DNA from: Malacoraja senta
Taxonomy: Eukaryota
NCBI GenBank assembly: GCA_038087875.1
Contig: JAXLNO010004019.1
Location: forward strand, 1 to 64,000
Length of the DNA stretch: 64,000 bases
Reading direction: 5' to 3'
Under the pieces are notes generated by a model. It was not told the DNA's origin. It made no database searches and worked only from the letters and a program-made list of their open reading frames with translations. Within the stretch, counting starts at the first letter, position 1, and each line of letters begins with the position of its first letter. The translations under genes were made by a program, and so were the position numbers. Of this stretch, positions 10,838-63,085 are shown piece after piece.

Positions 10838-10859
10838 TGACCATTCTCGTGTCCCCTCA

Positions 10860-29999: not shown

Positions 30000-30560
30000 C
30001 TCCTCTATTCAGTCCTCACTGACATCCTCTGTGCTCCCCTCCCCATCTACCCCCCCCCCCAATCTATTCATCACCCTACCCACCTCGCATTGATTCTTCT
30101 GCCACCCCCCCCCCCCATCCATCCTACACTGGTCCCCCAATTCATCCTGTACTGATCCCCTTCCCATCCATCCTGCACTTCTCCCCCCCCACCATTCATA
30201 CTGCACTGATCCGCCCATTCATCCCGTACTGACCCACCCTCCATTTACCCTGTAGTGATCTCCCATTCATCCTGCATAGACCCTCCGATCCACACTGCTC
30301 TGACCCCCCCATTCATCCTGTACTGATCCCCCCATTCATCCTGTGCTGATCCCCCCCCCATCCATCCTGTACTGATCCCCCCCATTGAAAAAGAATGGGG
30401 GGAACAGTCTGAAGAAGGGTGTCGACCCGAAACGTTGCTTATTTCCTTAGCTCCATAGATGCTGCCTCACCCGCTGAATTTCTCCAGCCTTTTTGTCTAC
30501 CCCCATTCGTCCTGTACTGAACCCCCATTCATCCTATACTGATTCCCCCCATCCATCCCA
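30000..30560. repeat. C-rich minisatellite (CCCATTCATCCTGTACTGATCC-like unit)
   Basis: Many imperfect ~22-27-nt units; a homologous array lies at ~58960-59430. Confidence 0.8.
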
Positions 30561-30939
30561 TATTGATCCCCCCCCATTCAACACCACTGACATCCCCCGT
30601 GCTCTCCTCTCACAATTTTACATACTCCAACCAACACGTACTAATCACCTGCCTCAATCCATACATTCCGCACCGATTGCCTTCTCAACCCCCCCCCCCC
30701 CGCCATCTATCCACCCCGCATTGATTCACACACCCCCTGACCCTATTGTGCTTCATGGTCTTCAGAGCGAACATTGATTATGTTTGATAACTGAATTTAA
30801 TCAAATGTGTTTTAATTCCCAATGTTATTATTTGTTTTGACACCTTTAAACATATTACCAAAAGAACATTTGCTGCAGTTATGTCCTTTGGCCATCTCTT
30901 GTCAGTTAGTGTAATGTTTAACCTGTCAGATGGGTATAC

Positions 30940-31420: not shown

Positions 31421-34400
31421 TAGTCGGTACAGTCAGGAATAGTCGGTATTAACAGCTATTATCATAAAATGCCTTTAGAAATTTCCTTGCAACCTGTATA
31501 TTTTGTTATGGATAAATTATGTGGGAAGCCAGAGTGTTTCTGTGCCAATAGCAATAACGACCCATGCTATGGACATGTCATGGTAATTTTCGGTCCTTCA
31601 CAGAAAATATGGTTGCATCAATTTGTAGCGTGTATGGTTAAGCATATGCTGATGGGTTTCACCCTTCTTCAGACTGATGGGTTTCGGCCTGAAACGTTGC
31701 TTATTTCCTTCGCTCCATAGATGCTGCTGCACTCGCTGAGTTTCTCCAGCACTTTTGTCTACCTTTGATTTTCCAGCATCTGCAGTTCCTTCTTGAACAT
31801 AATATGTGAATGCTTCATTGAGCATAATTCCGAATGGTACCTACGCACTTCGTCCGAGCCCATTATCGCACGGGTCATGCAAACCGTCTTCAATGACCAC
31901 CTAAACTGTCATTTGGCAACCTAAAAGGCTGTCAAGGTTGCCCGGCTGGCAACAGGGGAAAAAAGTTAAGTGAGAGCCCTGTGCAGTATAATATAGATAA
32001 TTGTGAGGTTATCCACTTTGGCGGCAAAAACAAGGGAGCAGATTATTATCTCAATGGGGTTAGGTTAGGTAATGGGGAGGTACAGCGAGACCTGGGTGTC
32101 CTTGTACACTGAAAGTTGGCGTGCAGGTACAGCAGGCAGTGAAGAAAGCTAATGGAATGTTGGCCTTCATAACAAGAGGATTTCAGTACAGGAGTAAAAA
32201 GGTTCTTCTGCAGTTGTATAGGGCTCTGGTGAGACCACATCTGGAGTATTGTGTACAGTTTTGGTCTCCTAATTTGAGGAAGGACATCCTTGTGATTGAG
32301 GCAGTGCAGCGTAGGTTCACGAGATTGATCCCTGGGATGGCGGGACTATCATATGAGGAAAGATTGAAAAGACTAGGCTTGTATTCACTGGACTTTAGAA
32401 GGATGAGGGGGATCTTATAGAAACATAAAATTATAAAAGGACTGGACAAGCTAGATGCAGGAAAAATGTTCCCAATGTTGGGCGAGTCCAGAACCAGGGG
32501 CCACAGTCTTAGAATAAAGCGGAGGTCATTTAAGACTGAGGTGAGAAAAAAACGTTTTCACCCAGAGAGTTGTGAATTTATGGAATTCCCTGCCACAGAG
32601 AGCAGTGGAGGCCAAATCATTGGATGGATTTAAGAGAGAGTTAGATAGAGCTCTAGGGGCTAGTGGAGTCAAGGGATATGGGGAGAAGGCAGGCACGGGT
32701 TATTGATGGGGGACGATCAACCATGATCACAATGAATGGTGGTGCTGGCTCGAAGGGCCGAATGGCCTCCTGCACCTATTTTCTATGTCTATGTTTCTAT
32801 GTCTACGTTTCTATGTTTCTTATCAATCGGAGGGAAGGATAGTCCTTCACAGTTGTGTCTGGGTTCTTATCTGTTGCAATCTTGCATTACAGCTGCTCTT
32901 GGTCATTATGTTTAGCAGCCAGTTCTCGCAAAGGTTAACAAATTGCCACTTTTACAAGGGGATTCCATTTGGTGGGGGAATCTGGCCATTTATGGCATCC
33001 ACAGGTGAGATAAGTGGGTGGGAGAATTCCAAACAACAAGAAAGGCAAGATTTAAGTCAACTTTGGGGAGACGTTGATTTATGATTGTTTATTTCAACTC
33101 CACAAGTAACCATTGTGTCATGAGGGTATAAGAATCCTACAGTTATTGTAGGATTTTGAAGTAGTTTGAGTTTGCTCACACTGCTTCCCGATGTATTTTG
33201 CTGAGGCCTTTATTAAACTGACATGTTAGATAGACTCGCCACTGATCTATGAGTTTTTTCAATTTGTGTCTGTGCCTATCTGAGTAAAGTCGGATATAGA
33301 CTATGGGTAAAGTACAAAATGCCCTCTAACAGAAGGTCTTTGTATCCTCAGCATCCTTCATAGTTTGTTATAGTGGAAGGCGTGTTTATAGCTTTTTATA
33401 TCTATTTTATATCTATCATTGGATTTGTTCTGCAAATTAATACTAGTTATTTTTTAATGCATTCAAACCAAATATACTTTAATATTCCTTAATCAACTCA
33501 AATTATACCCATTATTATCATAAGCAATGACAGACATCCAGCATTAGGTGCTTTGCTGAATATTGCACAAAATAGCATGACTAAATCTGTATTTTGTCTA
33601 ATAGTTTAAATGTAAGCTGTAAGCTTTCATGTTTGTTTATATTTCCTGCAATAATATTGTCTGTGGGGAACAAAAGCTTTAAATATTGGCTTATATTCTT
33701 ATTTCAAAAACTGCTCTTTCACAAAGTTGCATTTTATTATTCTCTTGAATAATAGAATATTGCACTAACTAACTGGATTTATCATTTTTTTAAGATGATA
33801 AGATGAAGCTTGTATTTTTCAGTTTGAAGCCTCTGCTTGTTTTTGGTTATGTTGAGCTTTTAGAGGATTAAGTTGCTCCTGACATAATTTTACTGGCGTG
33901 CTGCAAGTCATACTGAGCTCGGGCATTGTGGAAGAGCACATGGATGCTTGTACAGAACTGTAATATTGCTAAGTTTTAATGTTTGACAGCAGGAAGTGGC
34001 CTGCATCAGTCAGAGTATTGAGTATAGTTGGGAGGTCATGTTGCAGTTATATAAGATGTTGGTGAGGCTGCCTTTAGAGTATAGACTTCCGGTGGCGCTA
34101 TGGAGGAATAGAGGTCCGCGCCAGCTAGCTCCACGCAAAATTGTTTGAAAACGGGGAGAAAAGAACGGGACTGACCCGCTGATAACACTCTGGCTGCTTG
34201 CAACGAGTGAGTGACGTCATCAGGCGAGCGACTCCGGCGGTATGTCTGTCTAACATACCCCCCCACCCCCAAGACGAAAAGCCCAACCGTGAAGCCCAAG
34301 GACTGAAGTCTCAGTCGGACTACGCCCGACTGAAGCCTCGGGCTCAGTTTTAGCGTCGTCCCAGGAAGATGTTTCAAAGAAGACAAAAGTCGAAAAAAAC

Positions 34401-34518
34401 AGAAATAGAGGAACTTCGAAGTTTTCTCTCACAAGAAATTGCAAGTATAAAGGAACAATTGAAAAGTTTTAAAGAAAAACTGAACTTTAAAGAAGAACTG
34501 CAATCCTTTAAAGAATAA

Positions 34519-35301
34519 ATGAAAGAAGAAATTACAAACTCTGTTCATGAAGTGTTGGAAGCCTGGAAGATAACAATGGAAGAAAATCTTACTCTACAGA
34601 TCGAAGAGGTAAATGTTAAAATAAATTCGATGGAATCCAGCTTTAATTCTAAGTTGGATACCATCATCCAGACATTAAATCAACAAAATACAGCTATAAC
34701 TCAATTAGAGGATATTGCTGAGACAGGTGCCGAAACTACAAAAAAGCTTCTCTCCGAGAACAAGCGTTTATCAGACTCATTGAGTAAAATAACTGAAAAA
34801 TGTATTGACTTGGAGGGATGTCAGAGACGACAAAATTTAAGAATTGTGGGCGTCCAGGAAGGCAGAGAGGGGAGCCGTGACCTCCGTGAATTTTCTGCAG
34901 ACTTATTACAAAAAGTCTTAAATCTTGATCAAAAACCCCTACTAAGTCGGGCACACAGAGCACTGGGACGCCGCCCAAGACAACTGATAGTGAAGGTGCA
35001 ATATGGCCATGTTTTGGATAATATGATGAAGAAAATCGTTCGCAACAGAGATCTCCTATTTGAAGGAGACAAGATCAGTATATTTAGAGATTATCCTGTG
35101 GAGGTCACCAGGAAGAGAGCGCTGTTTACAGAGACAAGAAGAATACTTAAGAATATACAAGATCTGAGATTATGGACTGATGTATCCCGCAACACTGAGT
35201 TACCTACAAGAGGAAGGAATATTTCTTCACTGACCACAAGGAAGCACTTGATTTCGCCCTGGACATTGAGAATAAGACCGATGATTGAACAATACTTGTG
35301 A
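34519..35301 (+). CDS. L1 ORF1 protein (coiled coil, RRM, CTD; transposase-22-like), 3' end frameshifted
   Basis: LEGCQRRQNLRIVGVQEG...RAHR...PRQLIVK...ISIFRDYP. Confidence 0.8.
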   Translation: MKEEITNSVHEVLEAWKITMEENLTLQIEEVNVKINSMESSFNSKLDTIIQTLNQQNTAITQLEDIAETGAETTKKLLSENKRLSDSLSKITEKCIDLEGCQRRQNLRIVGVQEGREGSRDLREFSADLLQKVLNLDQKPLLSRAHRALGRRPRQLIVKVQYGHVLDNMMKKIVRNRDLLFEGDKISIFRDYPVEVTRKRALFTETRRILKNIQDLRLWTDVSRNTELPTRGRNISSLTTRKHLISPWTLRIRPMIEQYL

Positions 35302-35826
35302 GATTCAAAATCACAAATGCTTTTAGAGACAAAGTCGGCAAAGAAGCTTTTTATTCAAATCATATTCTGCAGAATAGGTGCCTCTCCTCTGATGTCCCCT
35401 AGAGGCACACCGAGGATCGGGATGTCTTCTATCTTTATACATTTCATGGGTATCATTGTCACACCCTCATCCCTCCCCATTGTGCTTCTTCCAATCATAA
35501 CATAAAGCCCACATTCCCACGAGAACGTCCTGGAACGTCCACCCGGCGTCAAAGACACCTCCCATATCATGCATCGCATGTGCATTTAAATGAGACATCT
35601 TGTCATAGTGGGTGTGTGTACATATTCATGTAAGTTCATTGCCCATGCGCACAGAGTGTTTCTTATGACCCTTACCCTAGTTCTATCCTGGACGGTCTCC
35701 TTATCTTCTCTGTTCTCATCCTTGAAAAAGTCACCATCTGTGCTCGTTCTTCACTCCCCCTATCCTCCCTACTATACAAAGGGTTCTTGTCTAAATCAAC
35801 TTATACCTATTAACCCCTTCCTCACA
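35297..35826 (-). repeat. ERV 3' LTR (530 bp)
   Basis: TG...CA ends; differs from the 5' LTR by ~7 substitutions and one 12-bp tandem duplication (by eye). Confidence 0.93.
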
Positions 35827-35862: not shown

Positions 35863-36500
35863 TTAGACTATCTGCCCCTTCTCTAATGCTAGCAGCAGAA
35901 TCTTCGCCTCCTTATCTTCCTCTCGCTGGTCATACTTTGTTTTAAATAGGCACAGCAACCCCATCATAACTACCACTGATGTTAGGGCTGATGTAAAGAT
36001 GTGCTTCCATTTCCCAAACCAGGAGTCTAGAAACCCGGTCCAGGAGGTGTCTACTCCGGAGTTCTCGGGCAATTCGATAGACAGGGAGGTGAGACCTGCT
36101 AGGGCTCTCGATACTGACCCATCAGGAGCAGTGTTGTTGGAGATGAAGGTGCAACATTGTTCCCCAAACATTACACACACCCCTCCCTTCTCAGCCAGTA
36201 GCATGTCTAAGGCCATGCGATTTTGCCAGGCCATTAGGCTGGTATCTGTCAGTTGTTCCGCTAATCCTTCAACCGCATCTCGAGTGTAATTTATAAAGCG
36301 TTGTTGATTGTAGTATAGGTAGTTGATCCAGTCCACATTTTTATTAAGTGTGGACCACCAGAAGAGTATGGACTCAAAGCCCGCAGCTATCTGGTTTCTG
36401 GCTTTGAATTCATCGGGTACCCCTCTTGGCACCCCTATCGCATCTATATATATGTGTGTGTTGAAGGGTCTGTCCTTCGGCCCTTTGTATTGTTGTTGCT
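35863..36500 (-). pseudogene. env: Retroviral env, TM subunit remnant
   Basis: IDAIGVPRGVPDEFKARNQIAAGFES, immunosuppressive domain QNRMALDMLLAEKGGVC, CX6CC motif; SU, furin site and part of the anchor/tail are deleted. Confidence 0.92.
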
Positions 36501-36908
36501 AGCCGGGAATAGGTAATGATAACTCTGGCAGGTCGCATCCTTTGGTAGGATGGGATTCGTGAATTGCTGTAGTATACATGACATAGCCCCAGGTGTCCTA
36601 TCCCAATTCAAGGGAAATGGTTCTGGAACCAGCTGAGGCTTAGCAATTGGTGTGTTGCATACTCCTGGCCGTGTACATCATCCAGGCAAGCCAGGTGTTG
36701 GCTCCCTTCCCTCCTGTAGGTATTCCCTCCTCATATAATTGCCTTAATTCTGTTTCTCCTGCTACTATCATTATCTTCAAATCCTTAGGCTCATTCTCCC
36801 TGTTCTATCTGCACATATCCAATACCTACCACTTTCCTGCATTTGAACACTCTGTATGCTTACATAGTTGGGTAACCACCCAACACACGACCCACCAACA
36901 CGAAATCT

Positions 36909-37307
36909 TCATTTTTCCCGCGGGTTCTTGTTAAATATTAAAGTCAATGGTTCCTCTCCTTTGCGCACAGTCCACGGGCTGATATTGTTTGGTGGGGCCT
37001 CCACAGGTCCCTTAAATCGGCTTGCGTGTGTCCACCCTTTTTCTTTTGTTCGTACTGCTGTCTCGGTGATTAGTAACACCAGGTAGGGTCCAGTCCACTT
37101 AGGTTGCAGCTTTTCTTCCTTCCATGATGTTACAAGATCCCAGTCCCCCGCTTTCACAGAATGGATTGGAAAGTCGAGATGGGGACTCTGTGCCAGCAGC
37201 CCCTTGGTTCTTAATTCTGTAATAGAACGAGATACTGCCAGTAAATAGTTCCTTAGGAATACATCATCCCCTTGTATTTGTTGGGACCCCTTCTATCTTT
37301 CCTAAAT
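36909..37307 (-). pseudogene. pol: pol integrase C-terminus, type B
   Basis: FLRNYLLAVSRSITELRTKGLLAQSPHLDFPIHSVKAGDW...WKEEKLQPKWTGPYLVLLITETAVRTKEKGWTH. Confidence 0.85.
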
Positions 37308-40300
37308 AATAAAGACCTAACTTGTTCAACCTTTCTCTGTGTCTTAGTTGCTGAAACCCAGTCAACATTCTAATTGATCTCCTCTGTACTCTCTCTATTT
37401 TGTTGACATCCTTCCTATAATTATGCCTACCAAAATTATACACCATACTCCACAATTGACCTCACCAATACCTTGTACAATTTAACATTACAACCCAACT
37501 TCTATACACAATGCTCTGATTTATAAAGGCCAACACACCAAAATCTTTCTTTACCATCCTATCTTCATGAAATTCCACCTTCAGGGAACTATGTACAGTT
37601 ATTCCTAGATCCCTCTATTCAACTTCATTCCTCAATTCACAATCATTTACCATGTACATTCAATTTTGATTTGTCCTGCCAAGATGTATCATCTCACACT
37701 TATCAACATTAAACCTATCTGTCATGTTTCAACCCATTCTTCCAAATGATCTAAATCTCTCTGTACACTTTTAAAATCTACTTCATTATTCACAACACCA
37801 CCTATCTTAGTATCATCTACATACTTATTAATCTATTTTACCACATCAACATCCAGATTATTGATTCACATGACAAACAACAGTGGACCCAACACACATC
37901 CCCGAGGTACCCTTCTAGTCACTGACCTCCAACCTGACAAACATCCATCCACCATTGCTCTCTGACATCTCCCATACAGCCACTTTTTAATCCATCTTGC
38001 TATTCCTTACTAACCCTTCTTAACCAACCTTATTTCTTTATTGAACCTTGTCAAAGGCCTTACTGAAGTTCATCTAGACAACATCCATCACTTTATTATT
38101 TTTTTTTTAAATTTTTATTTACATTACATTACAACCACATACATTAGTACTCGTCATTTATATCTTCTTACAATTAATGTACTCCATTTATTTTTTACAC
38201 TAGAAAAGGAAAAGATTGAAAAAAAGAAGAAAGTGAAGGAAAAAGTGAAAGTGTAGGAAATGTGACAACAAAAAAGGACGAAGACCCTATAAGAGCAAAA
38301 TTAAAAACAAAAGAAAAAGAGTTAAGAAATAGACCCTAGGAAAGAAAGAGGAAAAAGAGAGAAATAAATATTTTTATGAGCATTACGTAAATGGGACATA
38401 CCAACTCTTCAACTATCATCCCCCCCTTACCTGACCTCAATTTTTTAAATTTTTTTTAAAGTACTTTTGCACCCTATGTTTGTAATAATTCTATAAATGC
38501 AGACCACGTCAGGTGGAAGTGATCTGGTTTACCTGCTAGGAGGAGTCTTATCTCTTCTAGGTGTAATGTTTCAAACATATTTGAAATCCACATATTTATA
38601 GTTGGTATTGGAGCCTTCTTCCAAAATTTTAGAATTAGCTTTTTTCCAATTATTAACCCATAGTCCATTAGTTTCTTTTGAAACACATTTAGTTCTGGAC
38701 CATCTTCCGTTATACCGAAGATAATCCATTCTGCTTTGGGTATCAGTCTTGTTTTAAATAACTTTGTAAAGATTTCAAAAATTTCATTCCAAAATTTTTG
38801 AATTTTTGTACAGAAAACGAATGAGTGCGCTATAGTAGCTTCTTGGGATTGACATTTATCACAAATAGATGATACATTTGGGAAAATGTTATGAATTTTA
38901 GTTTTCGAATAATATAATCTATGTAAAATTTTAAATTGTATTAAAGTGTGTCTTACATTAATCGAGCATTTATGCACGTTTAATAAGTATTCATTCCAAC
39001 TTTCCTTTGAAATTTTAATAGCTAACTCTTGTTCCCAGTCTCTTCTGATACCCTCCGTAGGTGGTATTTGTACATTTAAGATAATATTATACAAATAAGA
39101 TATTAAGTTTGCTGATTCCGCTTTTATCTGCATTGCCTCGTCCAATACATCTACTGGGTTATTATAATGATCTTTTGTATATTTTTTCAAATAGTCGCAT
39201 ATTTGAAAATATTTAAAATATTGATTATTTCCGAGTTTATATTTTATTTGTAATTGTTGAAATGAAAGTAATTTTCCAGTTTCATACAAGTCACCAAGCG
39301 TTTTAATTCCTAATCTATCCCATTGTGTATAAGCTTTATCTATAATAGAAGGATTAAACGAAGGGTTATTGACTATAGGTAATAAAAGTGATAAATTTCT
39401 TAATTTTAAATTTTGTTTTATTTGTTTCCAAATTCGGATTGTACTATGAATAATTGGGTTCTTATTATAATTTATGTTATTCAGTTTCATTGGAGAGAGG
39501 AGGATCGCTCCAATGTTTCTAGAGGAGCAATCCTCTTTCTCCATTACAATCCAGTCCACTTGCTGGGCGGAGTTATCCATCAGTTGAATCATATTTTTAA
39601 TATTTACTGACCAATAATAATACATAAAATTAGGTAGTGCTAGACCCCCTAATACTTTAGGTTTATTCAGATGAGTTTTTTGTATTCTATGTGATTTATA
39701 GTCCCATATAAAATTAGTGATATCTGAGTCGAGTTTTTAAAAAAAACTTCTTTGGTAAGTATATAGGAATTGATTGAAATAGGTATAAAATTTGTGGTAA
39801 AAAGATCATTTTTATTGCGTTTATTCGGCCTATTAAAGACATCGGGAGCGTTTTCCAGAATTTAATTAGTGTGTTTAATTTATTAAGTAAGGGGTCAAAA
39901 TTGGCCCTAAACATACCTTGATATGATCTGGTAATTTCGATTCCCAAGTATTTAAATTTTTCTATAGCTATTTTAAAAGGGAATTTTAAAAGATGTGTTG
40001 AATCTTTCGGTTTTATTGACATAATTTAACTTTTATTCCAATTTATTCTATATCCAGAAAAAGATCCAAAGTCTTCAATTAAATTTAATATATTTGGTAT
40101 AGTGATTTGAGGTTTTGTAATGTACAGTAATATATCATCCGCGTATAAAGATATTTTATTATATGAATCTTTAGTATTATATCCATGGATATCAGGGTGT
40201 ATTCTATTTTTTTCTGCTAGCGGTTCAATAATGAGAGCAAACAGCTGTGGTGATAATGAGCATCCTTGTCTATTTCCCCTTGATAGTTGGAATTTCGAGG

Positions 40301-42318
40301 ATAATATGTTATTAGTTAGTATTCTAGCTGTAGGTTTTGTTATATAGTAACTTGATCCATAGAATAAAATTCTCCCCCAGTTGAAATTTTTGTAATACTT
40401 TGTCCATATAATTCCATTCTACTTGATCAAATGCTTTTTCAGCATCCAGCGAAATAATTGATAATTCTTGATCCTCAGATTTGTGTGAGTGCATTATGTT
40501 GAGTAGACGTCTCATATTGTTAGATGAGTATCTCTTGGGGATAAACCCCGTCTGATCTGGGTTTATTAATTTACTAATGTATTTACTTAATCTTCTAGCT
40601 AATGTTTTCGCTAATATTTTTTGATCTGTGTTTAACAATGCTATAGCTCTATATGAACCAGGTGCTTCTAAGTCTTTATTTTTCTTAGGTATTAATGTAA
40701 TCGTTGATTCCGCTAATGTATCAGGTAGTATTCGTTTTTTAAAAGCATATTGGTACATTTTTTGTAATCTTGGTATTATTTTATCATAAAAGCTTTTATA
40801 AAATTCATTAGTAAATCCGTCAGGGCCTGGTGTTTTTCCATTCTTTAGTGAGTTTATTGTATCTTCTAATTCCTTAATTGAGATTTGTGCACCCAGTTCC
40901 TCTTGTTCCTTCAGCTCTAACTTTGGAAGATTACAGGTGATATTATTGGAATCAATTGTCGTTTTAGATGTATACAAATTCTCATAAAATTGCGCAAATC
41001 TATTATTAATATCCTTTGGTGTTGTTAATAATTCCCCTTTATCTGATTTGATCTTTGGTATAGTATGTTCCTTTTCTCGTTTTTTTAGCTGGCGAGCCAA
41101 AAGTTTATGCGGTTTATCCCCAAATTCAAAATGCTCTTGTTTTGTAATTTGAAAAAGTCTTATAAGTTTGGCAGATAATAATTTATTTAATTTAAATTTC
41201 AAAATTATTATTTTATTATGTTTATCTATTGATGGATCTTTAGCATTATCTATATCCATTTGTCTAATAAGTTCTTCTAACTGTCTTTGTTCATTCTTAT
41301 TCTTTTTATTTTGAAAAGCTTGATATGAAATTATAATACCCCTAATGTATGCTTTAAAAGATTCCCATAATACAGTAGGCGATATATCTGGAGTATCATT
41401 TATTTGAAAAAAGACCTCCATTTGTTCTTTTAAATATATACTCGCTTGTGGATCTTTTAGAATTTGAGAATTAAATCTCCAAAACGATTTATTCTTAGAC
41501 AATCCTTCCAGTTTTAAAAAGAAAGTTAGTGGAGAATGGTCTGAAATCGAGTTTGTGTGGTATATTGCATTAGATGTTTGGGGGATTAATTTTGTATCCA
41601 GCAGAAAGTAGTCTATACGTGAGTATGTCTTATGTACCATTGAGTAAAACGAGTATTCCCTGCCAGTTGGATTAACAATTCTCCAAACATCTGCTATATT
41701 AGTGTTTATATAGGTATTGAGAAGTTCACCAGTTTTCGATTTCATATTCCCTCTCTGTTTTTGACTTGATTTATCTAAGTACGGATCTAAAACACAGTTA
41801 AAGTCTCCTCCTATTATAACATTTTGATAGTTTGACTCTGCAATTATGTTGAAAATGTTATTGAAAAAGTGGGGGTTATCAAAGTTAGGGGCATATATAT
41901 TTACCAAAGTAAGTGGAGTGTCATGGATTTCTCCATTAACTATTAGGTATCTCCCTTCTATATCTGTTATAATATTCTTTGCTTTAAATGGTATACCTTT
42001 TCTTATGATGATTGACGTGCCTCTAGATTTTGAAGTAAATGAAGAATGGTATGTTTGACCTATCCATTTCGCCCTCAACCTAACTTGATCCTGAGATTTT
42101 AGGTGTGTGTCTTGTAGGAAGGTAATGTCGGAGTTGTACAATTTCAGCTCTTTACCCTCATCAATTTCCCTAATAACCTTTTCAAAAAATTCAAGATTAG
42201 TCAAACATCACAATCACAAATCCATGCTAATTCTTCCTAATCCTACCCTATTTATCCAAATTCTTATATATTGTCTTAAGTATCCTTTCCATTATTTTGC
42301 CCACCACTGATGTCAAAC
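37308..42318 (-). mobile_element. Hypermutated CR1 fragment inside the provirus (37308-38095 and 42150-42318), split by an L1
   Basis: Colinear with CR1 60470-61440; lacks both the 3' tail and a TSD; many substitutions at G and C. Confidence 0.85.
38096..42149 (-). mobile_element. 5'-truncated L1-type LINE (ORF2 with few frameshifts)
   Basis: ORFs 40324-42204, 39714-40022 and 38474-39625 cover endonuclease, RT and Cys domain; poly-A end at ~38096; short TSD CTTTA at 38091-38095 and 42150-42154. Confidence 0.92.
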
Positions 42319-42399
42319 AACGTTCTTGTTCAAACTCTACTCTTTTCTCACATCTTTGTCCTCCTGTTCACTTACCTCAGGGCTATTATCTATTCGTAC

Positions 42400-42900
42400 C
42401 TGCGGGACAGCCCTCAGGTATTATTGAAATGGTACCAGGTATATCAACCTTCTACCTGAACATCGGTCGGTAGTTTAGAAAACTCATACATACACCTTGT
42501 CTTCAGGTTTAAAGGGTCCTTCCTCCTGGTCCACCTCCAACAGCTTTTACTTTTCCTGTTCATAAATAGACTTGTATATCATAATTAACTGTTTCATATA
42601 CTTTTTAAATTCTATCTTTAACTGTTCCAAACTCGGTCTCTTGTAGGGACCTCTCCATTGTGCCACCTGCTCGGTTAGTTTGCATGCAACATCTCTTCAG
42701 TGCCAATGGCAGGGCATCGATCCAATTCAACTTTGTAATTAAACAAATCTTATTTATATTAACCTTCAATGTTCCATTTATTCTTACATACCCAAATGTG
42801 TATTTTACTCTAAGGGTCTCTATCGCCAATTTAGCTACTCCCTAAATGAAAACAATCCGTTGTCAAAGCTGATTTCTGTTGGTCTACCAAACCTCTTAAT
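42400..42900 (-). pseudogene. pol: pol integrase core and C-terminus, type A (decayed)
   Basis: IKRFGRPTEISFDNG, INGTLK...TKLNWIDALPLAL, YMKQL...GPFKPEDKVYV with stops and deletions. Confidence 0.75.
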
Positions 42901-44810
42901 TACCTTATTCATCATAAACGACACTACAGGGCTTATACCAAATCTAGTCTGAACTATATCCTGCCTTTAAATCCCTTTCTCTCTTGGGGACCCCAGTCCT
43001 GTTAGGGCTTATATCCAGATTAATTTCACTCCTGATAGGACCTTTTGAGGAAACGTACCCCAAAGACATTCATTATTGGCATGTAATTCTCTGGCCCTGC
43101 TTGGTTCCGTCATAGGACTCACTTAGGTCCATTGTTTATTGACAACACCTCCTCCTGCTGGTTTGCAAGTCTTTTTCCTATCTTTGCGATATTTCTCGAC
43201 CGCAGAGACCAACTGTTCGCTGAATCTGCTTGACTTTAAGAAGAATGACATCCACCACAGTAGTTCATAATATAATGTTCATCAATCAACTCTCCACCTT
43301 TTCAGCTGGTTTTCCAGATAGGCTATTTGCCTTTCCTTCTTGTGTATCTCCCCTTTGTTCCTTGGGGTTCCTCTTAAGTGGGTAACATTGTCTGAGGGTC
43401 TGCCATACCCTCTGCCTGACTGTGTCAAACAGTATGCCATTGCTTGTTACATTGTTCGCATCAGTTTATACCATCCATCTTCAGTAGTTCTGTCACTTTA
43501 GTGGTTCCTATCACTTTTACCAACAGTGCCTTCAAATCTTCCATGATCAATAATCGTCCCACGTTCTCCTCCAAAGCCCTAATCCATTTCCTACCCCATC
43601 AGGGATATAGGGTGAGGTATTTTTTAGCCCTTTCAGTTTATGGGTGCCCCAAGGGATAATCCGTGTCTGTCCTTCTCTTTTCTCTTTAAAGCAGTCTCAT
43701 CACTTTATCCCAATGCTTCCAACTTTAATCCTTTCTGGTATGCCTTCCTTCTAATTCTAAACTCAATTTCTTGCTTCTCAAATATTCTAGCCTCCTTGCA
43801 AAAATCTTCCACTGACTCCTCCTGCTTTATTACTTTCACGCCTGTTGTTTTTCTACTTCTGTTATCTTCTAACTGCCTCTCTCTCCTTTCTTTCTAAACT
43901 TGAATGTTTACCAATTAACTTATTTCCAATTATTTCAATCCATATTCACCACTATTTTAAATGTCCAATTCCTAGCACTAGTAACAATTTTCCAAATTAT
44001 CTTTACTGACTAGAAATCTAAAAGAACATCAGAAAAACCAAAAGCTGGTTTCACAACTTCCCCTTCTAGGTTAAGGCCAACAAACAATTAAACGTTATCT
44101 TACAGCTGTTCGTCGCCTTTCACCATGACCTGATTTATTTAAAGGAACATGCACCTACCTACAGTGAACATTTTTGATTTTAATAAAACTTACTTACTTA
44201 CTCTTACAATGTGGTCTACAAATACAATAAACAAAATAATTATCACATATATAAACTTCCTCTTTCATTCCCAACCGGTTTTTACACACAAATCACATTC
44301 GTTCCATTCTTACTTCAAATAAATGCAACATCTTTTACATGTATTAAAACTCAATATAACAGAATCAAATCATTTTTGTCTTCTTCAATCCCTGGGTATT
44401 TCTCTGCCCCCAGAGGCTCAGTATTCGCCCCAACGGACTATCAGGCAGAATGCGGGGTCGGGCTTACTGCCCTTCCCCTCCCTTTTGGGCTCTCCGTTTT
44501 CATTGCCCATCCTCCCGAGCGGAATTTTTCCCCCGATCTTCCTCCCGATCGGAATTTCCCCCCGATCTATTTGCCCCCGATCTATTTAATCGCCCGAGTA
44601 GTACTTAATAGTCAGTTTTCTTACCAGGGTCTTGTGCACAAGAATCACTCGATTTGGCTCCTTCACGATTTCCAACTACTCCCACTTCTTTGCTGAGTCT
44701 CTGTTCAGGGATACCACTCGCCCAAACCGCTGACGACAATCTAGGGGTCTGGGACCGCTGAAATCAACGGGGTGCACTGTCCCTTCTTCCGTATACCGTC
44801 GTCAGCCGGA
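42900..44810 (-). pseudogene. ERV leader and gag-region remnant, strongly C-depleted on the sense strand
   Basis: Positioned between PBS and integrase; weak MHR-like KQEESVEDF near 43800; many stops. Confidence 0.45.
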
Positions 44811-44816
44811 GTGGGG

Positions 44817-44835
44817 GTCCCGAGACGAGCCCCCA
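44817..44835 (-). promoter_or_regulatory. Primer binding site, tRNA-Pro type
   Basis: TGGGGGCTCGTCTCGGGAC, 5 nt inside the 5' LTR, versus canonical Pro PBS TGGGGGCTCGTCCGGGAT. Confidence 0.85.
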
Positions 44836-44840
44836 AAAAT

Positions 44841-45382
44841 TGTAAGATTCAAAATCACAAACGCTTTTAGAGACAAAGTCGGCAAAGAAGCTTTTTATTC
44901 AAATAATATTCTGCAGAATAGGTGCCTCTCCTCTGATGTCCCCTAGAGGCACACCGAGGATCGGGATGTCTTCTATCTTTATACATTTCATGGGTATCAT
45001 TGTCACACCCTCATCCCTCCCCATTGTGCTTCTTCCAATCATAACATAAAGCCCACATTCCCACGAGAACGTCCTGGAACGTCCACCCGACGTCAAAGAC
45101 ACCTCCCATATCATGCATCGCATGTGCATTTAAATGAGACATCTTGTCATAGTGGGTGTGTGTACATATTCATGTAAGTTCATTTACCATGCGCACAGAG
45201 TGTTTCTTATGACCCTTACCCTAGTTCTATCCTGGACGGTCTCCTTATCTTCTCTGTTCTCATCCTTGAAAAAGTCACCATCTGTACTCGTTCTTCACTC
45301 CCCCTATCCTCCCTACTATACTCCCTACTATACAAAGGGTTCTTGTCTAAATCAACTTATACCTATTAACCCCTTCCTCACA
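44841..45382 (-). repeat. ERV 5' LTR (542 bp)
   Basis: TG...CA ends; adjacent PBS; carries a CTCCCTACTATA duplication. Confidence 0.93.
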
Positions 45383-45985
45383 ATACTCAACACCCACCTG
45401 ACGTTACCGGACGGACATCGTTACCTCACAGAGAACAAATGGAACTTTAAATTGTTTTACTTAAGGACTAATGAAAGCTGATAATGATAGTCGAGCAAGT
45501 TTTTTTTATTGCTATTGATATATAACATTTATATTTTAGTACTAATTACTACTAATTATGATTACTAATTATTACTAATTATTATTAATTGGAGCCACTT
45601 AGAATTAGTTCAAAATATGAATTATAAGTAAGGTTTGATTCAGGCAATTTATTAATAATTTTTTTTTTTTTTTAATACTATTGACCAATTATCGATTCAT
45701 ATTTTTTTAATATGAGACTAATATTTTATCTTGAGAATAATAACTTTTTCACTAACAGATTATAAATATTTTGGACCTAAAAATGTCTTCCCCCTTCCCT
45801 ACAAATTGTTATTATTGAAACTTTTTTTAAAGAAAAGCATGGAGCTGGTATTATTATTTTTTTTCCAAAGGCTACGGAAGTCTTTAGATGGCTAGCCACA
45901 TTAGTGTGGCTATCACTAACTACACCAACTATAGATGTAGTTTTTTCTCTTCTTTTACACTTTATTAACCATTTATTCTTTCACC

Positions 45986-48900
45986 TTTTTTTATTTAAAT
46001 CTTTTTATTTGAATTTCACGTCAATTTACAAACATACAATAATAACAGACAGTAACAATCAAGGCATAATTGTACAACAGTATGTAAGCGATCCTCAAAA
46101 CCCTTACCCTTACCCACCTTCAACCCACCCAAGTCAGGTTGGAGCCAAACGGGGACAAACAACACTCACATACGTACACATCCACACACAAATGGTGGAA
46201 TAGACAAAACAAAATGTGCTATATAAAAATTTAAAAATATATATATATATCTAAATAAATAATTGTAGGGAGGGGGGGGGTTAAGGGGAAAGCAGCTGCT
46301 GTAGAACAAAACGATGATGGAGAACACTCAGTCCTCTTCCGAGTCCGGGGACAAGGTAAGAGAGTTAACCAGTTCAAAGAAAGGGTTCCATGTATCTAGG
46401 AATGTCTTGGTAGAGCCTTTGAGAGAGAACCTAAGTTTTTCAAGTTTCAGATTGTAAATCACCTCCTTAATCCAACGGGCATGTGTCGGGGGACAGATAA
46501 GCCTCCAACTAAGCAAGATCAGTCTCCGGGCTAACAAGGTTGTAAAAGCTAGGACCCGTTTCACCGCAACAGAGAGGTTAGTATTGGGAGGGGTACCGAA
46601 AATAGCTGACATTGGATTTGGAAGAATAGTCTGGTCGTAAGCTCTGCTTATCAATTCAAAAGAACTCCAAAAGGCTGCTAGCTTAGGGCAAGGCCAAAAC
46701 ATGTGGCTATGGTTGGCAGGAGATTGACTACATCTGTTACAGGTGTCATTAACAGCTGGGTACATTCTAGCTAATCTTGCATTTGTGTAGTGGACTTTGT
46801 AAAGGACTTTGCATTGGATTAGGCCATGACGAGCACATATGGAAGAAGAGTGGATCAAATCCAAGGCAGAGTCCCATTGCTGGTCTGTTAATTTCGTATT
46901 CAGCTCTCCCTCCAACGCAGCTTTTAATGAGGTATGAGGTTTCAATAAAACCGACCCTAGCAAATTATACAAAATAGAGATGCATTTCTTCCGATTGGGG
47001 TCTAAAGCTAAGATGATATCAGTCAGGGTTTCAGGAGGGCGATTTGGGAAGTAGGGAAATGTCTTCTTCACAAAATCCCTAATCTGGAAAAACCGAAAAA
47101 GGTGATGTTTGGGAGGTTGTAGTTAGACCAGAGCTCCACGAAAGATGAGAAGATGCCATCCTTATATAGGTTTTTAATACTACTGATGCCATTGCTATGC
47201 CAGGTTTTAAATGCGTGGTCTATACTTGAAGGTTTAAAAATGTGATTTTTAAGCAGTGGGGTCAAGATGGAAGGACCCTGTAAACCGAGGTTTTTCCTAA
47301 ATTGACTCCATATCTTGAGCGAAAGGGACACAATTGGGCCTGCACCCACAGATGTTATAGAAAGGGGGAGTTGGGAGCATAGGACAGACCGCAACGGGAG
47401 ACGTGAACTCGCCTTTTCCATATAAAGCCTGATCGGTGGGTGCTCGCAATCATCATTCATCCAATACAGGAGTTTTTGCAAGTTAGCTGCCCAGTAGTAT
47501 TGCCTAAAATCAGGGAGGGCCAAACCGCCATCACTCTTAGGCGACTGCAGTATCGCCTTTCGGATTCTGACCGGTTTGCTACCCCATAAGAATTTAGATA
47601 TTGTCCTTTCTAAGTTGTCAAAAAAAGATTTGGTGATAAGTATGGGGACATGCTGGAAAAGATACAGGAATTTGGGTAGGACAACCATCTTAACCAGATT
47701 TATCCGGCCCACGAGGGATAGCGGTAAGACTGACCAGCGATCAAAATCTTTTTCGGCTTTCTCAACCAGAGGCAAAAAGTTTGTGCGGAACATATCAGAT
47801 AAGGGTATTGTGATAAAAACGGTGAGATAGCGAAACCCATCCTCTGCCCTTTTGAATGAGGTTAAAGAGCGAGGGAGCTGCTTAGCCGGTAAGTTAATCG
47901 GTAATAGCTCACTCTTTTGGTAGTTAAGTTTATAACCAGAATATGCACCAAACCGTTCTAAAATATTCATAATCACAGGGAGAGAACTGACTGGGTTCGA
48001 GCAGGTCATCCGCATACAATGAGACTTTATGAGTTGTGTCAAACCGTGTAATACCTTTAAAGCCCTTCTCTGCGCGTAACCAGACCGCCAGGGGTTCTAT
48101 CGCGACAATAAACAAGAGTGGAGATAGTGGTACCTGTCTGGTACCTCTCTGAAGTGTGAAGTGGGGCGACAGTATGTCGTTTGTTTGTACTGAGGCCACC
48201 GGGGACGAATATAATAGGCTCACCCAGAGAATAAAACTGTTTCCGAGGCCAAACCTATCCATCGCCTCATATAGGTACCTCCACTCGACCCTGTCGAAGG
48301 CCTTTTCGGCATCGAGGGAGACCACCATCTCCGGGGTCTCATTACTCGAAGAGTGAATGATGTTAAGGAGACGCCTAGTATTATGGGAAGACTGTCGGCC
48401 AGGTACAAACCCCGTTTGATCCAACGAGATAATAGAGGGCATCACTCGTTGAAGACGAAGCGCAAGGGCTTTAGAAAGGATTTTGAGGTCCACATTCAGT
48501 AGTGAGATTGGTCTATAGCTACTACAAAGCAGGGGATCTTTCTCCTTTTTAAGAATTAGGGAGATGGTAGCCCACGACAAGGTGGGCGGTAGGCGACGAT
48601 GTAAAAACGCCTCATTGTACATATCTCTCAGGACTGGTGCGAGGAGGTCAGAGAAAGCTTTGTAATATTCTACTGAGAAGCCGTCAGGGCCGGGTGACTC
48701 CGCTTTGCAGCGATGTGATGGCTGCTTGGACCTCAGCTACAGTTATGGGACCACCCAAGTCTCTCATGGCTTCTTCGTCAATTCGGGGAAGCGTCATACT
48801 GCTGAACATGTCACCTGCAGTGGGCGGACAGTCGGAAGTGTATAGTTCAGTGTAGAATTTAGCAAATGCTTCATTAATTCTGCGAGGATCAGTATGAGTC

Positions 48901-51900
48901 TCCCCTGAGCTGGATCTAATGGCTGGAATTAGCCGTGAAGTCGCCTCTGTTCTGTCCTGATAGGCCAAAAGCTTTCCACCTTTATCCCCAGATTCAAAAA
49001 AGTGTTGCCTAGATTTGAGCAGTCGTAGATTGGCTTTATTAATGGATATGAGGTCAAAGTCTGTTTGTAGCCTAAGGCGTTCTCTATAGAGATTAGGGTT
49101 TGGGTCAGATGCATATTTGTCATCAATGTCCTTTATTTTTTGTAACAGATCTGCCGTTTGGAACGTCTCGGTTCTTTTCAGGTTGGAGATAAAGGAAATG
49201 AGTTGGCCCCTAATATAGGCTTTTGAAGCTTCCCAAAGTATACCTCTTTCTATGTCCGGCGAGTCATTCAGCTCAAAATATAGGGTGATTTGGGAGTGCA
49301 AGAATTGCATGTATTGAGCCTCTGCTAATAATGAGGAGTTGAACCTCCACTTAAAGGGGTTAGTTCGTTTACGAAAATGAAGATCAAGAGAGGTTGCAGC
49401 ATGATCTGATATAACGATGCTATGGTACTCACTAGATTTGATTTTGGAAAGCAATCTATTATCGAAGAGAAAGAAGTCTATACGGGTAAACGTACGATGT
49501 ACGTGGGAGAAAAATGAAAATAATTTAGTCGTGGGGAATATAAATCTCCATGGATCTGTAAGCCCCAGTTGTTTGGCAAGAACATGCACAGTCTTACCGG
49601 ATTTAGTTAAAGTAGAGGCTTTATTCGAAGATCTATCCAGTATAGGATCTTGGACCAGATTAAAGTCTCCACCCACAATGACATGGTGATTTTCAATATT
49701 TGGGAGAGATGTAAAATATTTAGTTATAAATGAGCTGTCATCCCAGTTGGGTCCATAAATGCTTGCCAATATGACAGGTGTGTCTTGCAATTTGCCCGAC
49801 ACCATGACAAAGCGACCAGCAGGGTCTTCCACAGTTTTCTGTGGTTCGAAATTAATGTTCTTACGAATCAGGATAGCAGTGCCCCTAGCCCTATTATTAC
49901 ATTTCGAGTGAAATAGTTGACTAATCCAGCCTCTCTTAAGCCGTGTTACCTCTCTGTTGCGAAGGTGGGTCTCTTGGATGAAGAATATATCACCTTTGAG
50001 CTGTTGCAAATGGGCCAAGATCCTATCAGTTTTGGTAGGACTTCCCGTCCCTCTCACATTCCACGAGACAAATCTAAGAGTATCGTTTGTGTTGGCCATA
50101 TTTAGCTATATGGGTAATGCGCTGTAGTTCTGCAAAACGAGACGGAAGAGCGCATCGAAGCCAGCTGCNNNNNNNNNNNNNNNNNNNNNNNNNNNNNNNN
50201 NNNNNNNNNNNNNNNNNNNNNNNNNNNNNNNNNNNNNNNNNNNNNNNNNNNNNNNNNNNNNNNNNNNNNNNNNNNNNNNNNNNNNNNNNNNNNNNNNNNN
50301 NNNNNNNNNNNNNNNNNNNNNNNNNNNNNNNNNNNNNNNNNNNNNNNNNNNNNNNNNNNNNNNNNNNNNNNNNNNNNNNNNNNNNNNNNNNNNNNNNNNN
50401 NNNNNNNNNNNNNNNNNNNNNNNNNNNNNNNNNNNNNNNNNNNNNNNNNNNNNNNNNNNNNNNNNNNNNNNNNNNNNNNNNNNNNNNNNNNNNNNNNCAC
50501 ACACAGCAAACAAGTGGAACACATATCATTTAACCATCTTTCAAACCTGAGACTCCAGACCTGAGATCCCCCATGTCTCAACTGAACCTTAAGTGCCCAT
50601 TGCACCAAGGTGCGTTGTCCTCGCTTCCGCATGGAGATATCCAATCTTAACTCCTTATATCACCGCTTCCCAAAGCGACGGTCACTCAGTGTCGATAAGA
50701 TAACATGAAGTAAAATAAGTATAGTAATAGTAATAATGACGATGATGATAATAATTTGAAAAATAGAGAGTAGGAATAAAGTAAGATAAACATACATTGA
50801 TAAATGCAAAGTTAAAATAATAACCATAATGGTTGCACTGCCAGTACCATTGCTAACACTAATAGTAATATTAGCAATGATGATAGTCACAATAAGACAA
50901 AGCATATTAACAAAATGGTGATAGTAAATAAACCGGCTAACCTGTAAGTGGATCCGGAATAACTTCCTTTGGTGTTACATAGTATGTCTTAAAATCGACA
51001 AAGTATAAAGAGAGAGTTGGCGTTGGAAAGGTTAGCAAATTACAAACTGGGCTGTTGGATTAAAGCACAGCGCTAAAGGCATCAATTATGTTTTGTTAAA
51101 CAAAAAAGGTATAAGATAAGATTTATATAACACCGCCCTGGCTGTAATGAGCTCTTATCAGCCTCAGACAGTTCGTTATGAAGATTAGTATAAGCAAACT
51201 AGCCAGGTGCTGACAGCGTTAGCGGGCAGCTGTTAAGAACAGGAAGGCAGAGACCAAATCACAAACCACAAAGTGGGTCCTTTAAGCCCAGTTTTATAGG
51301 ATATGCTGGTGAGGGACCCCTCAAGTATGATTACACATAGACAATATAAGAAAAAGTTAGTATAAAATATTCGCAAATCCTGGTGATTTCTTACCAGCCA
51401 CATACATTTTGAAACCGGGGTCTAGTATAATCAGCAATGCTGAACGCTAACCATAGCTAGTTATTAGGAACAGTCAAGCTAAAGTTAGTCCATGTAACCA
51501 TAGATTAACCGGCCCCTGTGCCACTCGAATATAGACGTACTGAACGAAGTCAGTCATCTGTCTGCGTCGATGGTAAGATGAGATGAAATCCTGAGCGTCC
51601 TCGGGAGATGTTGGTCGTCGCCTCTTTCCCTCCCCGGACATTATGAACAGCTTGGTTGGATAATGAAGGGAGGGTTTGAGACCCAGGTTATACAGCTCCT
51701 TCATAACGTCTCGGTACTCGAAGCGTTGTTCAACTATCTCGGGACAGTAGTCTTCGAAAATGTGGAACGGGGTATCTTTGTATTTCAGCTTACCCCTCTG
51801 TCTCCGAGCCTCACGTACCACCAACTCACGGGTCTGGTATCTATGGAAGCAGATCACAACTGCTCTGGGTTTTTCACCAGGGCTTGGCTTGGCTGTTAGC

Positions 51901-56200: not shown

Positions 56201-57485
56201 GATATGTGAAGAGAAAGAGATTAGTTAAAACAAATGTAGGTCCCTTGCAGTCAGAAACAGGTGAATTGATCATGGGGAACAAGGATATGGCGGACCAATT
56301 GAATAACTACTTTGGTTCCGTCTTCACTAAGGAAGACATAAATAATCTGCCGGAAATAGCAGGGGGCCGCAGGTCAAAGGAGATGGAGGAACTGTGAAAT
56401 CCAGGTTAGTCGGGAAGTGGTGTTGGGTAAATTGAATGGATTAAAGGCCGATAAATCACCAGGGCCAGATAGGCTGCATCCCAGAGTACTTAAGGAAGTA
56501 GCTCCAGAAATAGTGGATGCATTAGTGCTAATTTTTCAAAACTCTTTAGATTCTGGAGTAGTTCCTGAGGATTGGAGGGTAGCAAACGTAACCCCACTTT
56601 TTAAGAAGGGAGGGAGAGAGAAAATGGGGAATTACAGACCAGTTAGTCTAACATCGGTAGTGGGGAAACTGCTAGAGTCAGTTATTAAAGATGGGATAGC
56701 AGCACATTTGGAAAGTGGTGAAATCATTGGACAAAGTCAGCATGGATTTACGAAAGGTAAATCGTGTCTGACGAATCTTATAGAATTTTTCGAGGATGTA
56801 ACTAGTAGAGTGGATAGGGGAGAACCAGTGGATGTGTTGTATCTGGACTTTCAGAAGGCTTTCGACAAGGTACCACATAAGAGATTAGGATACAAACTTA
56901 AATCACACGGTATTGGGGGTTCAGTATTGATGTGGATAGAGAACTGGCTGGCAAACAGGAAGCAAAGAGTAGGAGTAAACGGGTCCTTTTCACAATGGCA
57001 GGCAGTGACTAGTGGGGTACCGCAAGGCTCAGTGCTGGGACCCCATCTATTTACAATTTATATTAATGATCTGGACGAGGGAATTGAAAGCAACATCTCC
57101 AAGTTTGCGGATGACACTAAGCTGGGGGGCAGTGTTAGCTGTGAGGAGGATGCTAGGAGACTGCAAGGTGACTTGGATAGGCTGGGTGAGTGGGCAAATG
57201 TTTGGCAGATGCAGTATAATGTGGATAAATGTGAGGTTATCCACTTTGGTGGCAAGAACGGGAAGGCAGACTATTATCTAAATGGTGGCCGATTAGGAAA
57301 TGGGGAGATGCAGCGAGACCTGGGTGTCATGGTACACCAGTCATTGAAAGTAGGCATGCAGGTGCAGCAGGCAGTGAAGAAAGCGAATGGTATGTTGGCC
57401 TTCATAGCAAGAGGATTTGAGTATAGGAGCAGGGAGGTTCTACTGCAGTTGTACAGGGTCTTGGTGAGACCACACCTGGAGTATT
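53207..57485 (+). mobile_element. CR1 with esterase-type ORF1 and 3'-truncated ORF2; ORF1 interrupted by its own RT segment
   Basis: ORF1: CARC...IGDSIVRG...HIGTND...DGLHLN (SGNH esterase-like); ORF2 55009-57485 has endonuclease and RT motifs with one stop near 56397. Confidence 0.9.
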
Positions 57486-63000: not shown

Positions 63001-63085
63001 ATTTTGGGTCCGAGTGCTTCCCTTCTCTGCCTCCTGCCTCCCACATTTTCCACTAGCTTTCTCTATTTGAGTGCCCCCAACCGTT
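60079..63085 (-). mobile_element. Young CR1 with near-intact ORF2
   Basis: 911-aa open frame 60169-62904 spanning endonuclease and RT; only the last ~20 codons are out of frame. Confidence 0.92.

Follow-up and report, generated by a model that had tools for sequence, protein, structure and literature searches.

A skate endogenous retrovirus in which one LTR pair encloses two distant class I integrase ends and a dead CR1 piece

Introduction

A 64,000-nt stretch of the Malacoraja senta genome (positions 1 to 64,000 of contig JAXLNO010004019.1, assembly GCA_038087875.1; hereafter the window) contains a provirus in which the ends of two different integrases lie on either side of a CR1 fragment. 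How could parts of two retroviruses and a LINE come to share one element? A sequence-only reading of the locus had described two unrelated integrase C-termini joined through captured CR1, and had attributed them to template switching by reverse transcriptase (RT) among co-packaged RNAs.

Recombinant endogenous retroviruses (ERVs) have been described before. recKoRV1, as outlined in PMC6112702, is a recombinant of koala KoRV and PhER, and Harlequin HERVs, in the account quoted from PMC4724089, are attributed to co-packaging and jumps of the polymerase, with reintegration by means of a helper. In the literature searched, which was mostly open-access, no comparable recombinant was found in skates or cartilaginous fish.

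Results

The window holds one provirus on the minus strand, between LTRs at 35297-35826 and 44841-45382. Its outer parts and insertion site are as follows.

44841..45382, minus strand: 5' LTR, 542 nt, with TG...CA ends and TATA-like and poly(A)-signal-like hexamers
44817..44836, minus strand: primer-binding site with one extra base, from inspection of the sequence
44511..44816, minus strand: leader, with short tandem repeats (~44510-44587) found in the sequence
35863..36912, minus strand: env, 349 codons interrupted by 5 stops; surface part shortened, transmembrane part well kept
35297..35826, minus strand: 3' LTR, 530 nt
35292-35296 (left copy) and 45383..45387 (right copy), unstranded: target-site duplication of 5 bp, copies matching
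34080..35296, plus strand: host element receiving the provirus, an L1-like 5' region and an ORF1-like frame (34519-35301); left edge approximate

Paired TG...CA LTRs, a target duplication and a primer-binding site together mark an integrated provirus. In pairwise alignment the two LTRs differ by 7 mismatches over 529 columns and one 12-nt duplication. We take the primer-binding site to be tRNA-Pro-like; the 64-kb window contains no tRNA genes for comparison. From its position, the leader is the presumed packaging region. The element at the insertion site is presumably L1-like, and Pfam returned no L1 ORF1 family for its frame.

The internal parts, in the sense of the provirus, are the following, with A and B denoting the two retroviral lineages.

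44359..44510, minus strand: start of a B gag (HERV-IP-like), frameshifted, ending after ~50 codons
43900..44358, minus strand: AT-rich stretch, 31% GC, with a contig depth resembling that of the A cassette
43162..43660, minus strand: A gag (capsid-like) remnant, frameshifted, from a profile match
42671..42957, minus strand: A integrase core remnant, missing ~10 codons internally
42319..42666, minus strand: A integrase C-terminus and acidic tail, decayed, from profile and tree; the tail (42416-42319) was read by eye and is unscored
42150..42318, minus strand: 5' part of the CR1 piece, sense to the provirus, 83.3% identical to the window CR1 at 60461-61439
38096..42149, minus strand: nested L1, truncated 5' at the ORF2 start, with a short A-tail and a 5-bp duplication
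37304..38095, minus strand: 3' part of the CR1 piece, 85.7% identical to the same window CR1, ending inside ORF2 without a tail
36912..37303, minus strand: B integrase C-terminus, from Pfam, profile and tree

The order A, CR1, B proposed from the sequence is thus retained, but the 5' end is also B-type, giving B-A-CR1-B, and the A integrase runs further 3' than had been proposed. The provirus has LTRs of identical type at both ends, all parts in sense and no third internal LTR, as PMC4724089 requires of a mosaic ERV; self-comparison of the window found no third LTR-like copy, and an unrelated LTR remnant inside 43900-44358 is possible. It falls short of an infectious recombinant in the sense of the same paper, with gag-pro-pol-env all in order, since it gives no protease, RT or RNase H match. 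This is a defective provirus, a mosaic without any encoded working enzyme.

The two integrase ends are clearly distinct. Against profiles built from 18 of the 27 A rows and 7 of the 8 B rows, the A piece scores 59.2 bits on the A profile with no domain on the B profile, and the B piece 178.2 bits on the B profile versus 17.8 on the A profile. Median identity is 13% between the A piece and 7 B relatives, and 17% between the B piece and 18 A relatives. A tree of 27 rows without an outgroup, which left out 17 of 41 database rows including all 6 gypsy outgroups (the cut motif failed), places the starred A and B sequences apart. The tree, a kind of check that had been suggested, supports the claim of two different C-termini in one provirus, and an internal duplication within a single family is refuted by profile and tree alike. 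Calling them "unrelated" was too strong, as they are homologous class I integrases. PF18697, the MLV-type C-terminal domain of integrase, is present on both lineages. Among relatives, P0002 (543.6 bits) and P0069 (387.6 bits) score best on p80 RT/RNase H entries, with foamy, Ty3 and HIV entries far behind. On these comparisons, both donors are class I (gamma/epsilon-like) ERVs of distant lineages.

The B integrase lies in a single frame (37292-36912), with 14 further codons matching in another frame (37320-37279). It scores 32.2 bits on Pfam MLVIN_C, for which the cut-off is 29.2, and is 84% identical over 127 residues to an ERV Pol of Leucoraja erinacea. That Pol family (the P0001 cluster, 16 members) has long open Pol frames, in contrast to the provirus here with neither RT nor RNase H, and may represent the helper lineage. 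As the sequence-only reading had stated, env adjoins the B integrase downstream (Pfam TLV_coat, E 1.7e-9); this env type is also seen next to A-type and other integrases (P0011, P0121), a point that tells against the recombinant reading proposed below. About 14 of 31 residues in the B gag start match the Gag consensus headed HERVIP in supplement 3 of PMC4724089 (one consensus, compared by eye); Pfam and protein searches returned nothing for this segment. An env motif also matches in that supplement, in which one integrase motif was not found. The gag and env motif matches by themselves suggest that the B lineage is HERV-IP-like.

On the A side, the stretch 43595-43452 of the gag remnant scores 22.8 bits (E 2.8e-8) on a 3-sequence profile, with weaker collinear pieces on each side. 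The integrase C-terminus occupies a single frame from 42666 to 42478 and resumes in another at ~42479-42417. Nine pol queries found no protease, RT or RNase H upstream of the A integrase, with nothing at E<=1 outside integrase; a candidate RT at 43900-43600 was dropped after this search gave no RT match. By these matches the A cassette is a decayed gag and integrase of a fish lineage, without detectable protease or RT. The AT-rich stretch is probably the A-lineage leader, and the 5' B/A junction would lie within it or at its edge. A contig from organism B departs from this stretch at 44154.

The CR1 piece halts ~290 nt before the end of the ORF (60169) in the window's other CR1 copy, and neither flank shows a target duplication. 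It does lack a 3' tail and a duplication, as had been noted, and with them the hallmarks of ordinary insertion; this does not argue against a normal CR1 insertion, because any later crossover or deletion falling inside CR1 would have removed both the tail and one copy of the duplication. Possible junction matches, judged against the CR1 parent DNA alone, are 3 nt at A/CR1 and 1-2 nt at CR1/B.

The piece is also heavily decayed. It carries private changes in 42 of 509 columns, versus 15 and 14 in two free copies; these include 11 G>A and 10 C>T, and the CpG observed/expected ratio is 0.06. Over 225 codons we counted 52 non-synonymous and 13 synonymous changes and 7 stops, compared with 15, 12 and 0 over 169 codons in a free copy. 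Such decay far exceeds the age of the LTRs, and the CR1 piece, by its letters, was long dead before the provirus integrated here. The env is decayed as well, with 5 stops over 349 codons. CR1 and B may therefore have decayed side by side, and the order of events proposed below is the weaker for it.

The nested L1, with its 5' truncation, A-tail and target duplication, has the features of an ordinary insertion and looks like a late local insert. Public contigs of runs X1 and X2 contain an L1-free joint (38080-42150), the short side of which is only 20 letters, and some window letters are lost. The search for sibling chimeras without the L1, which had been suggested, yields this joint, but none of the contigs listed (in tables cut short by 52 joints, 1,719 loose ends and 82,738 pieces) bridges the outer CR1 junctions at 37304 or 42318, so that the A-CR1-B linkage in other copies is indirect.

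The contig evidence draws on 4 of 24 runs, the other 20 having small shares. In run X2 the summed contig depth, which does not equal copy number, is 6,596-9,667 in A bins, 2,494-5,911 in B integrase/env bins and 4,561-10,154 in LTR bins. A single X2 contig crossing LTR and flank has a depth of 47.9 and carries no other letter. At 17 of 20 CR1 sites (20 listed of 360 rows), the X2 depth without the common CR1 letter is 4,000-11,100 within totals of 16,000-629,000, a remainder that may include third letters. One site at which a private letter persists is a stop. Private CR1 letters in X2 thus come to approximately the same depth as the A cassette, as would fit the capture, in one piece, of an older cassette made of A and CR1. 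The remainder depth in X1 is noisy (2,163-206,472), without an A-over-env step. An X2 joint (44254-44387) spans the gag start, joints from LTR to env end occur in both X1 and X2, X3 carries 37659-37952 with 5 differences in 294, and X6 gives cover over CR1 and L1 alone, a gap that carries no weight as evidence of absence. Since the interior, the private letters and the L1-free joint are all deeper than the LTR-flank junction, the contig depths point to the mosaic being an amplified non-autonomous family. No related locus was found in the viral and metagenome contigs searched. Ten peptides from the window, some of them spanning junctions, were looked up by exact match, and 0 of 10 turned up (a weak test).

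Discussion

At the level of sequence, the anatomy, the two lineages and an interior older than the LTRs are established. The claim of an inter-lineage recombinant within one LTR pair is upheld by profiles, tree and LTR comparison. We propose, with moderate confidence, that the provirus is a non-autonomous recombinant of the recKoRV/Harlequin type, a B retrovirus with a captured A+CR1 cassette, copied in trans. A HERV-IP-like B retrovirus would have retained LTR, primer site, leader and gag start on its 5' side and integrase end, env and LTR on its 3' side, with most of its gag-pol exchanged for an older cassette, a deleted A element with CR1 in its integrase tail. We infer the order of events as follows. 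CR1 would have entered the A integrase tail by ordinary insertion; the 3' crossover would then have fallen inside CR1, with loss of the tail and the second target duplication; a helper may have copied the mosaic in trans, resetting the LTRs; and the L1 would have entered the present copy last. Template switching, the route first suggested for the whole locus, is plausible and even likely for the B/A exchange, but the sequence cannot separate it from DNA-level events, and a direct switch onto free CR1 RNA is possible though unneeded. The near-identical LTRs, the one matching duplication and the B-type sequence at both ends do not fit a simple deletion between two separate proviruses.

Possible, though doubtful, is a chain of RT switches during reverse transcription that began on A RNA, passed through a free CR1 RNA and ended on B RNA, with the product decaying over a long non-autonomous history. 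CR1 is sense to the provirus, the orientation that template switching demands, both its ends are internal, the stop densities of env and CR1 are fairly close, and the short junction matches may be traces of switching; multi-donor LTR-mediated capture, in one case with Alu, is among the examples quoted from PMC5131818. However, this account calls for three or more switches among three kinds of RNA, and the matches are short beside the 6-bp median given there for Drosophila captures. CR1 is abundant in the genome, which makes ordinary insertion likely beforehand and sense orientation expected half the time, and the CR1 letters follow the A depth rather than that of the B leader in X2 (weak evidence). 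The stronger form, in which RT bridged distant retroviral lineages via free CR1 RNA and the three-donor product was widely amplified as a non-autonomous element, we consider rather improbable. If true, a cartilaginous fish would hold many copies of a dead LINE fragment made by an ERV, and abundant LINE RNA would serve generally to connect recombining viruses that share almost no sequence.

Assembly at the DNA level is unlikely. Here an A provirus with CR1 would have nested in a B provirus, two genomic deletions would have taken out B gag-pol together with the A LTRs and the CR1 tail, and what was left would later have been retrotransposed. Nesting is common in the window (the provirus in an L1-like element, the L1 in CR1), the junction homology is small and the piece has decayed in the manner of genomic DNA; yet each deletion must remove exactly one A LTR while gag-integrase-env stays collinear, and the window's self-comparison revealed no extra LTR-like copy.

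Quite improbable is an accident at a single locus that never spread, with A, CR1 and B each abundant alone and the LTRs kept alike by gene conversion. The CR1 junctions, unbridged in the contigs listed, and the empty peptide look-up fit it, as does the caution in PMC4724089 that low LTR divergence can mislead; but the letters that create stops or amino-acid changes in the dead CR1 piece persist at family-level depth, and the L1-free and gag-spanning joints are deeper than the flank contig. An assembly artefact joining repeats can practically be dismissed: the window is repeat-rich with an N gap at ~50170-50498, but the provirus contains no N, the duplications match at both provirus and L1, the gene order is collinear, and the X2 contig crosses LTR and flank without another letter.

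How does the preferred B recombinant with its A+CR1 cassette compare with known systems? As in recKoRV1 (following the description quoted from PMC6112702), one virus supplies the 5' LTR, the leader and the 3' end including its LTR, and an older, degraded retroelement supplies the middle, the B-type call at our 5' end being made by eye; disrupted frames and target duplications are further likenesses, as many copies would be. Unlike recKoRV1, the provirus here keeps an integrase end and all of the env span in its B part and has a dead LINE piece in its middle; its donors belong to distant class I lineages, its host is a skate and the event is old. With Harlequin it shares matching LTRs around a class I mosaic drawn from several donors, and HERV-IP-like parts, whereas the donors listed in the structure quoted from PMC4724089 are all LTR-element families with no LINE part, and many copies are mapped there against one resolved here. 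In the LTR-mediated retrocopies treated in PMC5131818, foreign sequence likewise replaces internal frames without tail or duplication and further non-autonomous rounds follow; the cargo there is spliced mRNA with junction microsimilarity, while here it is ERV plus CR1 with a possible match of only 1-3 nt.

The class of mechanism is already established; what is new, within the literature searched, is the cartilaginous fish host, and the dead LINE part sets the locus apart from the two mosaics above. The locus extends recKoRV/Harlequin-type mosaics to a skate, with donors whose integrase ends share <25% identity. It is a likely case of an ERV amplifying a dead LINE piece, and in repeat annotation such copies would wrongly be counted as a CR1 subfamily. 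If many copies exist, the order of capture could be tested directly on their junctions.

Results

The window is animal DNA, rich in repeats. Besides the provirus it carries a second, different L1-type ORF2 in four broken frames (46328-50105, minus strand), which stops at an N gap (~50170-50498), two arrays, related to each other, built from a C-rich ~23-nt unit (29968-30574 and 58931-59443), and two duplicated pairs of CR1-like sequence (53596-53895 and 56871-57170, 100% identity; 62006-62305 and 63085-63384, 96%), which reflect either recent tandem duplication or assembly doubling. The provirus is framed by two LTRs:

35297-35826, minus strand, 3' LTR, TG...CA ends
44841-45382, minus strand, 5' LTR, TG...CA ends

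Aligned over 529 columns, the pair shows 7 mismatches in addition to a single 12-nt duplication; the same 5 bases lie on both outer sides. A tRNA-Pro-like primer site follows the 5' LTR. At the rates quoted in PMC4422223 (a mammalian 2.2e-9 and, by assumption, 2.2e-10 for shark), the LTR difference of 1.3% would bracket integration loosely at ~3 to 30 million years ago. The provirus stands at the very end of an L1-like ORF1 frame (plus strand) in a host element (34080-35296) that resumes beyond the 5' LTR, from 45388. Contigs over the LTR flank (45338-45460) have depths of 47.9 and 325 in the public sequencing runs X2 and X1, with several other small contigs at 6-22 in X2; the greater depth may mean that the locus itself was duplicated a few times.

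The sequence-only reading described two integrase C-termini in this one provirus, and both are real. They belong to two class I lineages, A (fish-lineage) and B, which we take to be HERV-IP-like. With profiles built from 18 relatives for A and 7 for B, the A piece scored 59.2 bits on the A profile with no domain on the B profile, and the B piece 178.2 bits on the B profile and 17.8 on the A profile; identity between the lineages is 8-23%. The tree (27 rows, no outgroup, window pieces occupying only 22-37% of columns) placed them apart, as separate lineages: a starred set (95/95) united both A pieces with 9 A rows, and database protein P0001 was the partner of the B piece (100/97). Scores, identities and tree rule out internal duplication of one family. 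The claim that the integrases are unrelated did not hold, since in both lineages full Pols have gammaretroviral-type RT as their best match and carry PF18697; together with the profiles and tree, this makes them distant homologues.

The B end shows 84% identity over 127 residues to a Leucoraja erinacea ERV Pol, the next named matches being in other rays, which makes a skate the probable host. One frame of the A stretch matched 24 proteins by phmmer, including stingray, bamboo shark, bichir and teleost ERV proteins, and a second A-lineage search returned full-length Pols.

CR1 sequence does lie between the two integrase ends, as had been proposed, but the 5' end of the provirus is B-type. The leader is followed by a broken B gag start (44510-44359), alike by eye at ~14 of 31 residues to the Gag consensus that PMC4724089 supplement 3 gives under HERVIP, a record labelled herv4 that carries HERVIP order number 10410. 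The env transmembrane part closely matches the Env consensus in the HERVIP block of the same supplement; this env type is also found beside other Pol lineages. Between the B gag start and CR1 sits the A cassette, comprising an unassigned AT-rich stretch followed by a capsid-like remnant (E 2.8e-8), integrase core and integrase C-terminus; nine Pol queries found no match to protease, RT or RNase H in it. The order is therefore B-A-CR1-B, and the provirus is a non-autonomous mosaic.

Off-frame text of the A cassette recurs in contig proteins P0012, P0036 and P0037, and in P0020 and P0038 on 25 contigs, implying that degenerate A relatives exist elsewhere. In contigs at 42784 and 42577-42738, some A relatives retain an integrase-core segment deleted here and others skip a further 160 nt; judged from these contigs, the A family is variably deleted. 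The A-lineage database proteins P0011, P0035, P0115 and P0131 make large jumps internally, going from integrase to the env transmembrane part or from gag to integrase; these represent similarly deleted elements or else splicing in the gene models. A contig of X3, a run with a different organism label, tracks the AT-rich stretch to 44154 and then runs on for at least 255 letters of other sequence, which may be what lies upstream in the A element itself or may belong to a second recombinant.

The CR1 piece is sense to the provirus and lacks both of its ends; an L1 with an A-tail and a 5-bp duplication interrupts it:

37304-38095 and 42150-42318, minus strand, CR1 piece
38096-42149, nested L1

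Over 509 columns the CR1 piece has 42 private changes, where two free copies have 15 and 14, and its 225 codons include 7 stops, where a free copy has none in 169; G>A and C>T are balanced and CpG is almost gone. LTR divergence permits only ~0.7% change per copy after integration, so this decay suggests, barring LTR gene conversion, that CR1 was dead long before. The env, with 5 stops in 349 codons, implies that the B parts also predate this integration.

Origin of the mosaic

We lean towards a history in which a B virus would have retained its own cis signals and 3' end and acquired an older A+CR1 cassette through two crossovers; a helper would have copied the product, and the L1 would have inserted last. 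The missing CR1 tail and target duplication, previously read as an abnormal insertion, proved uninformative on the route of entry, because any crossover inside CR1 removes both. Template switching is established in retroviruses, and the sequence-only reading invoked it; here it is a plausible route, and junction matches to the CR1 parent measure 1-3 nt. An RT switch directly onto free CR1 RNA seems rather unlikely. Nesting at the DNA level plus deletions is more doubtful still.

PMC5131818 describes foreign RNA captured by an LTR-mediated route, once including an Alu. The mosaic shares its layout with recKoRV1, whose ends come from one virus and middle from an older degraded element (PMC6112702), and Harlequin is a class I mosaic of several donors, HERV-IP parts included (PMC4724089). 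The literature searches listed neither an example from a skate nor a recombinant ERV with CR1 in it; the family may be recorded in Repbase or in subscription papers.

Copies in public contigs

Parts of the stretch occur in 23 of 24 runs listed, half or more of it in 2; four runs were compared in detail. Summed contig depth does not equal copy number, and the best-matching runs may depend on the same source as the window. X2 depth is 47.9 for the LTR-plus-flank contig, 2,278 in the leader bin, 6,596-9,667 in A bins and 2,494-5,911 in B integrase/env bins. At 17 of the 20 CR1 sites listed, X2 depth minus that of the common CR1 letter is 4,000-11,100 at any total depth; window letters are missense or stop at 18 of the 20. 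Among the L1 sites listed, 2 of 18 leave no remainder in X2 and 4 more leave <2,400, the others being high because common L1 copies have the same letters.

The sequence-only reading proposed a search for siblings lacking the nested L1, and a joint bypassing it appears in X1 (1,977) and X2 (233), with a short side of 20 letters, in a search that left out 38092-38120, the expected place of a plain L1-free joint. A low-depth X1 joint running from the LTR start (45381) straight to the B integrase end (37031) suggests an env-less copy. Two points count against an amplified family: the X1 signal is noisy, and none of the contigs listed bridges 37304 or 42318. A further joint, 44254-44387 (X2, 796), places the gag start beside the AT-rich stretch in copies other than this one, and X3 contains env, LTR and CR1 piece at depths of ~3, the last with 5 differences from the window in 294. 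With the A/CR1/B linkage in these copies indirect, the mosaic is probably an amplified family of tens of copies or more.
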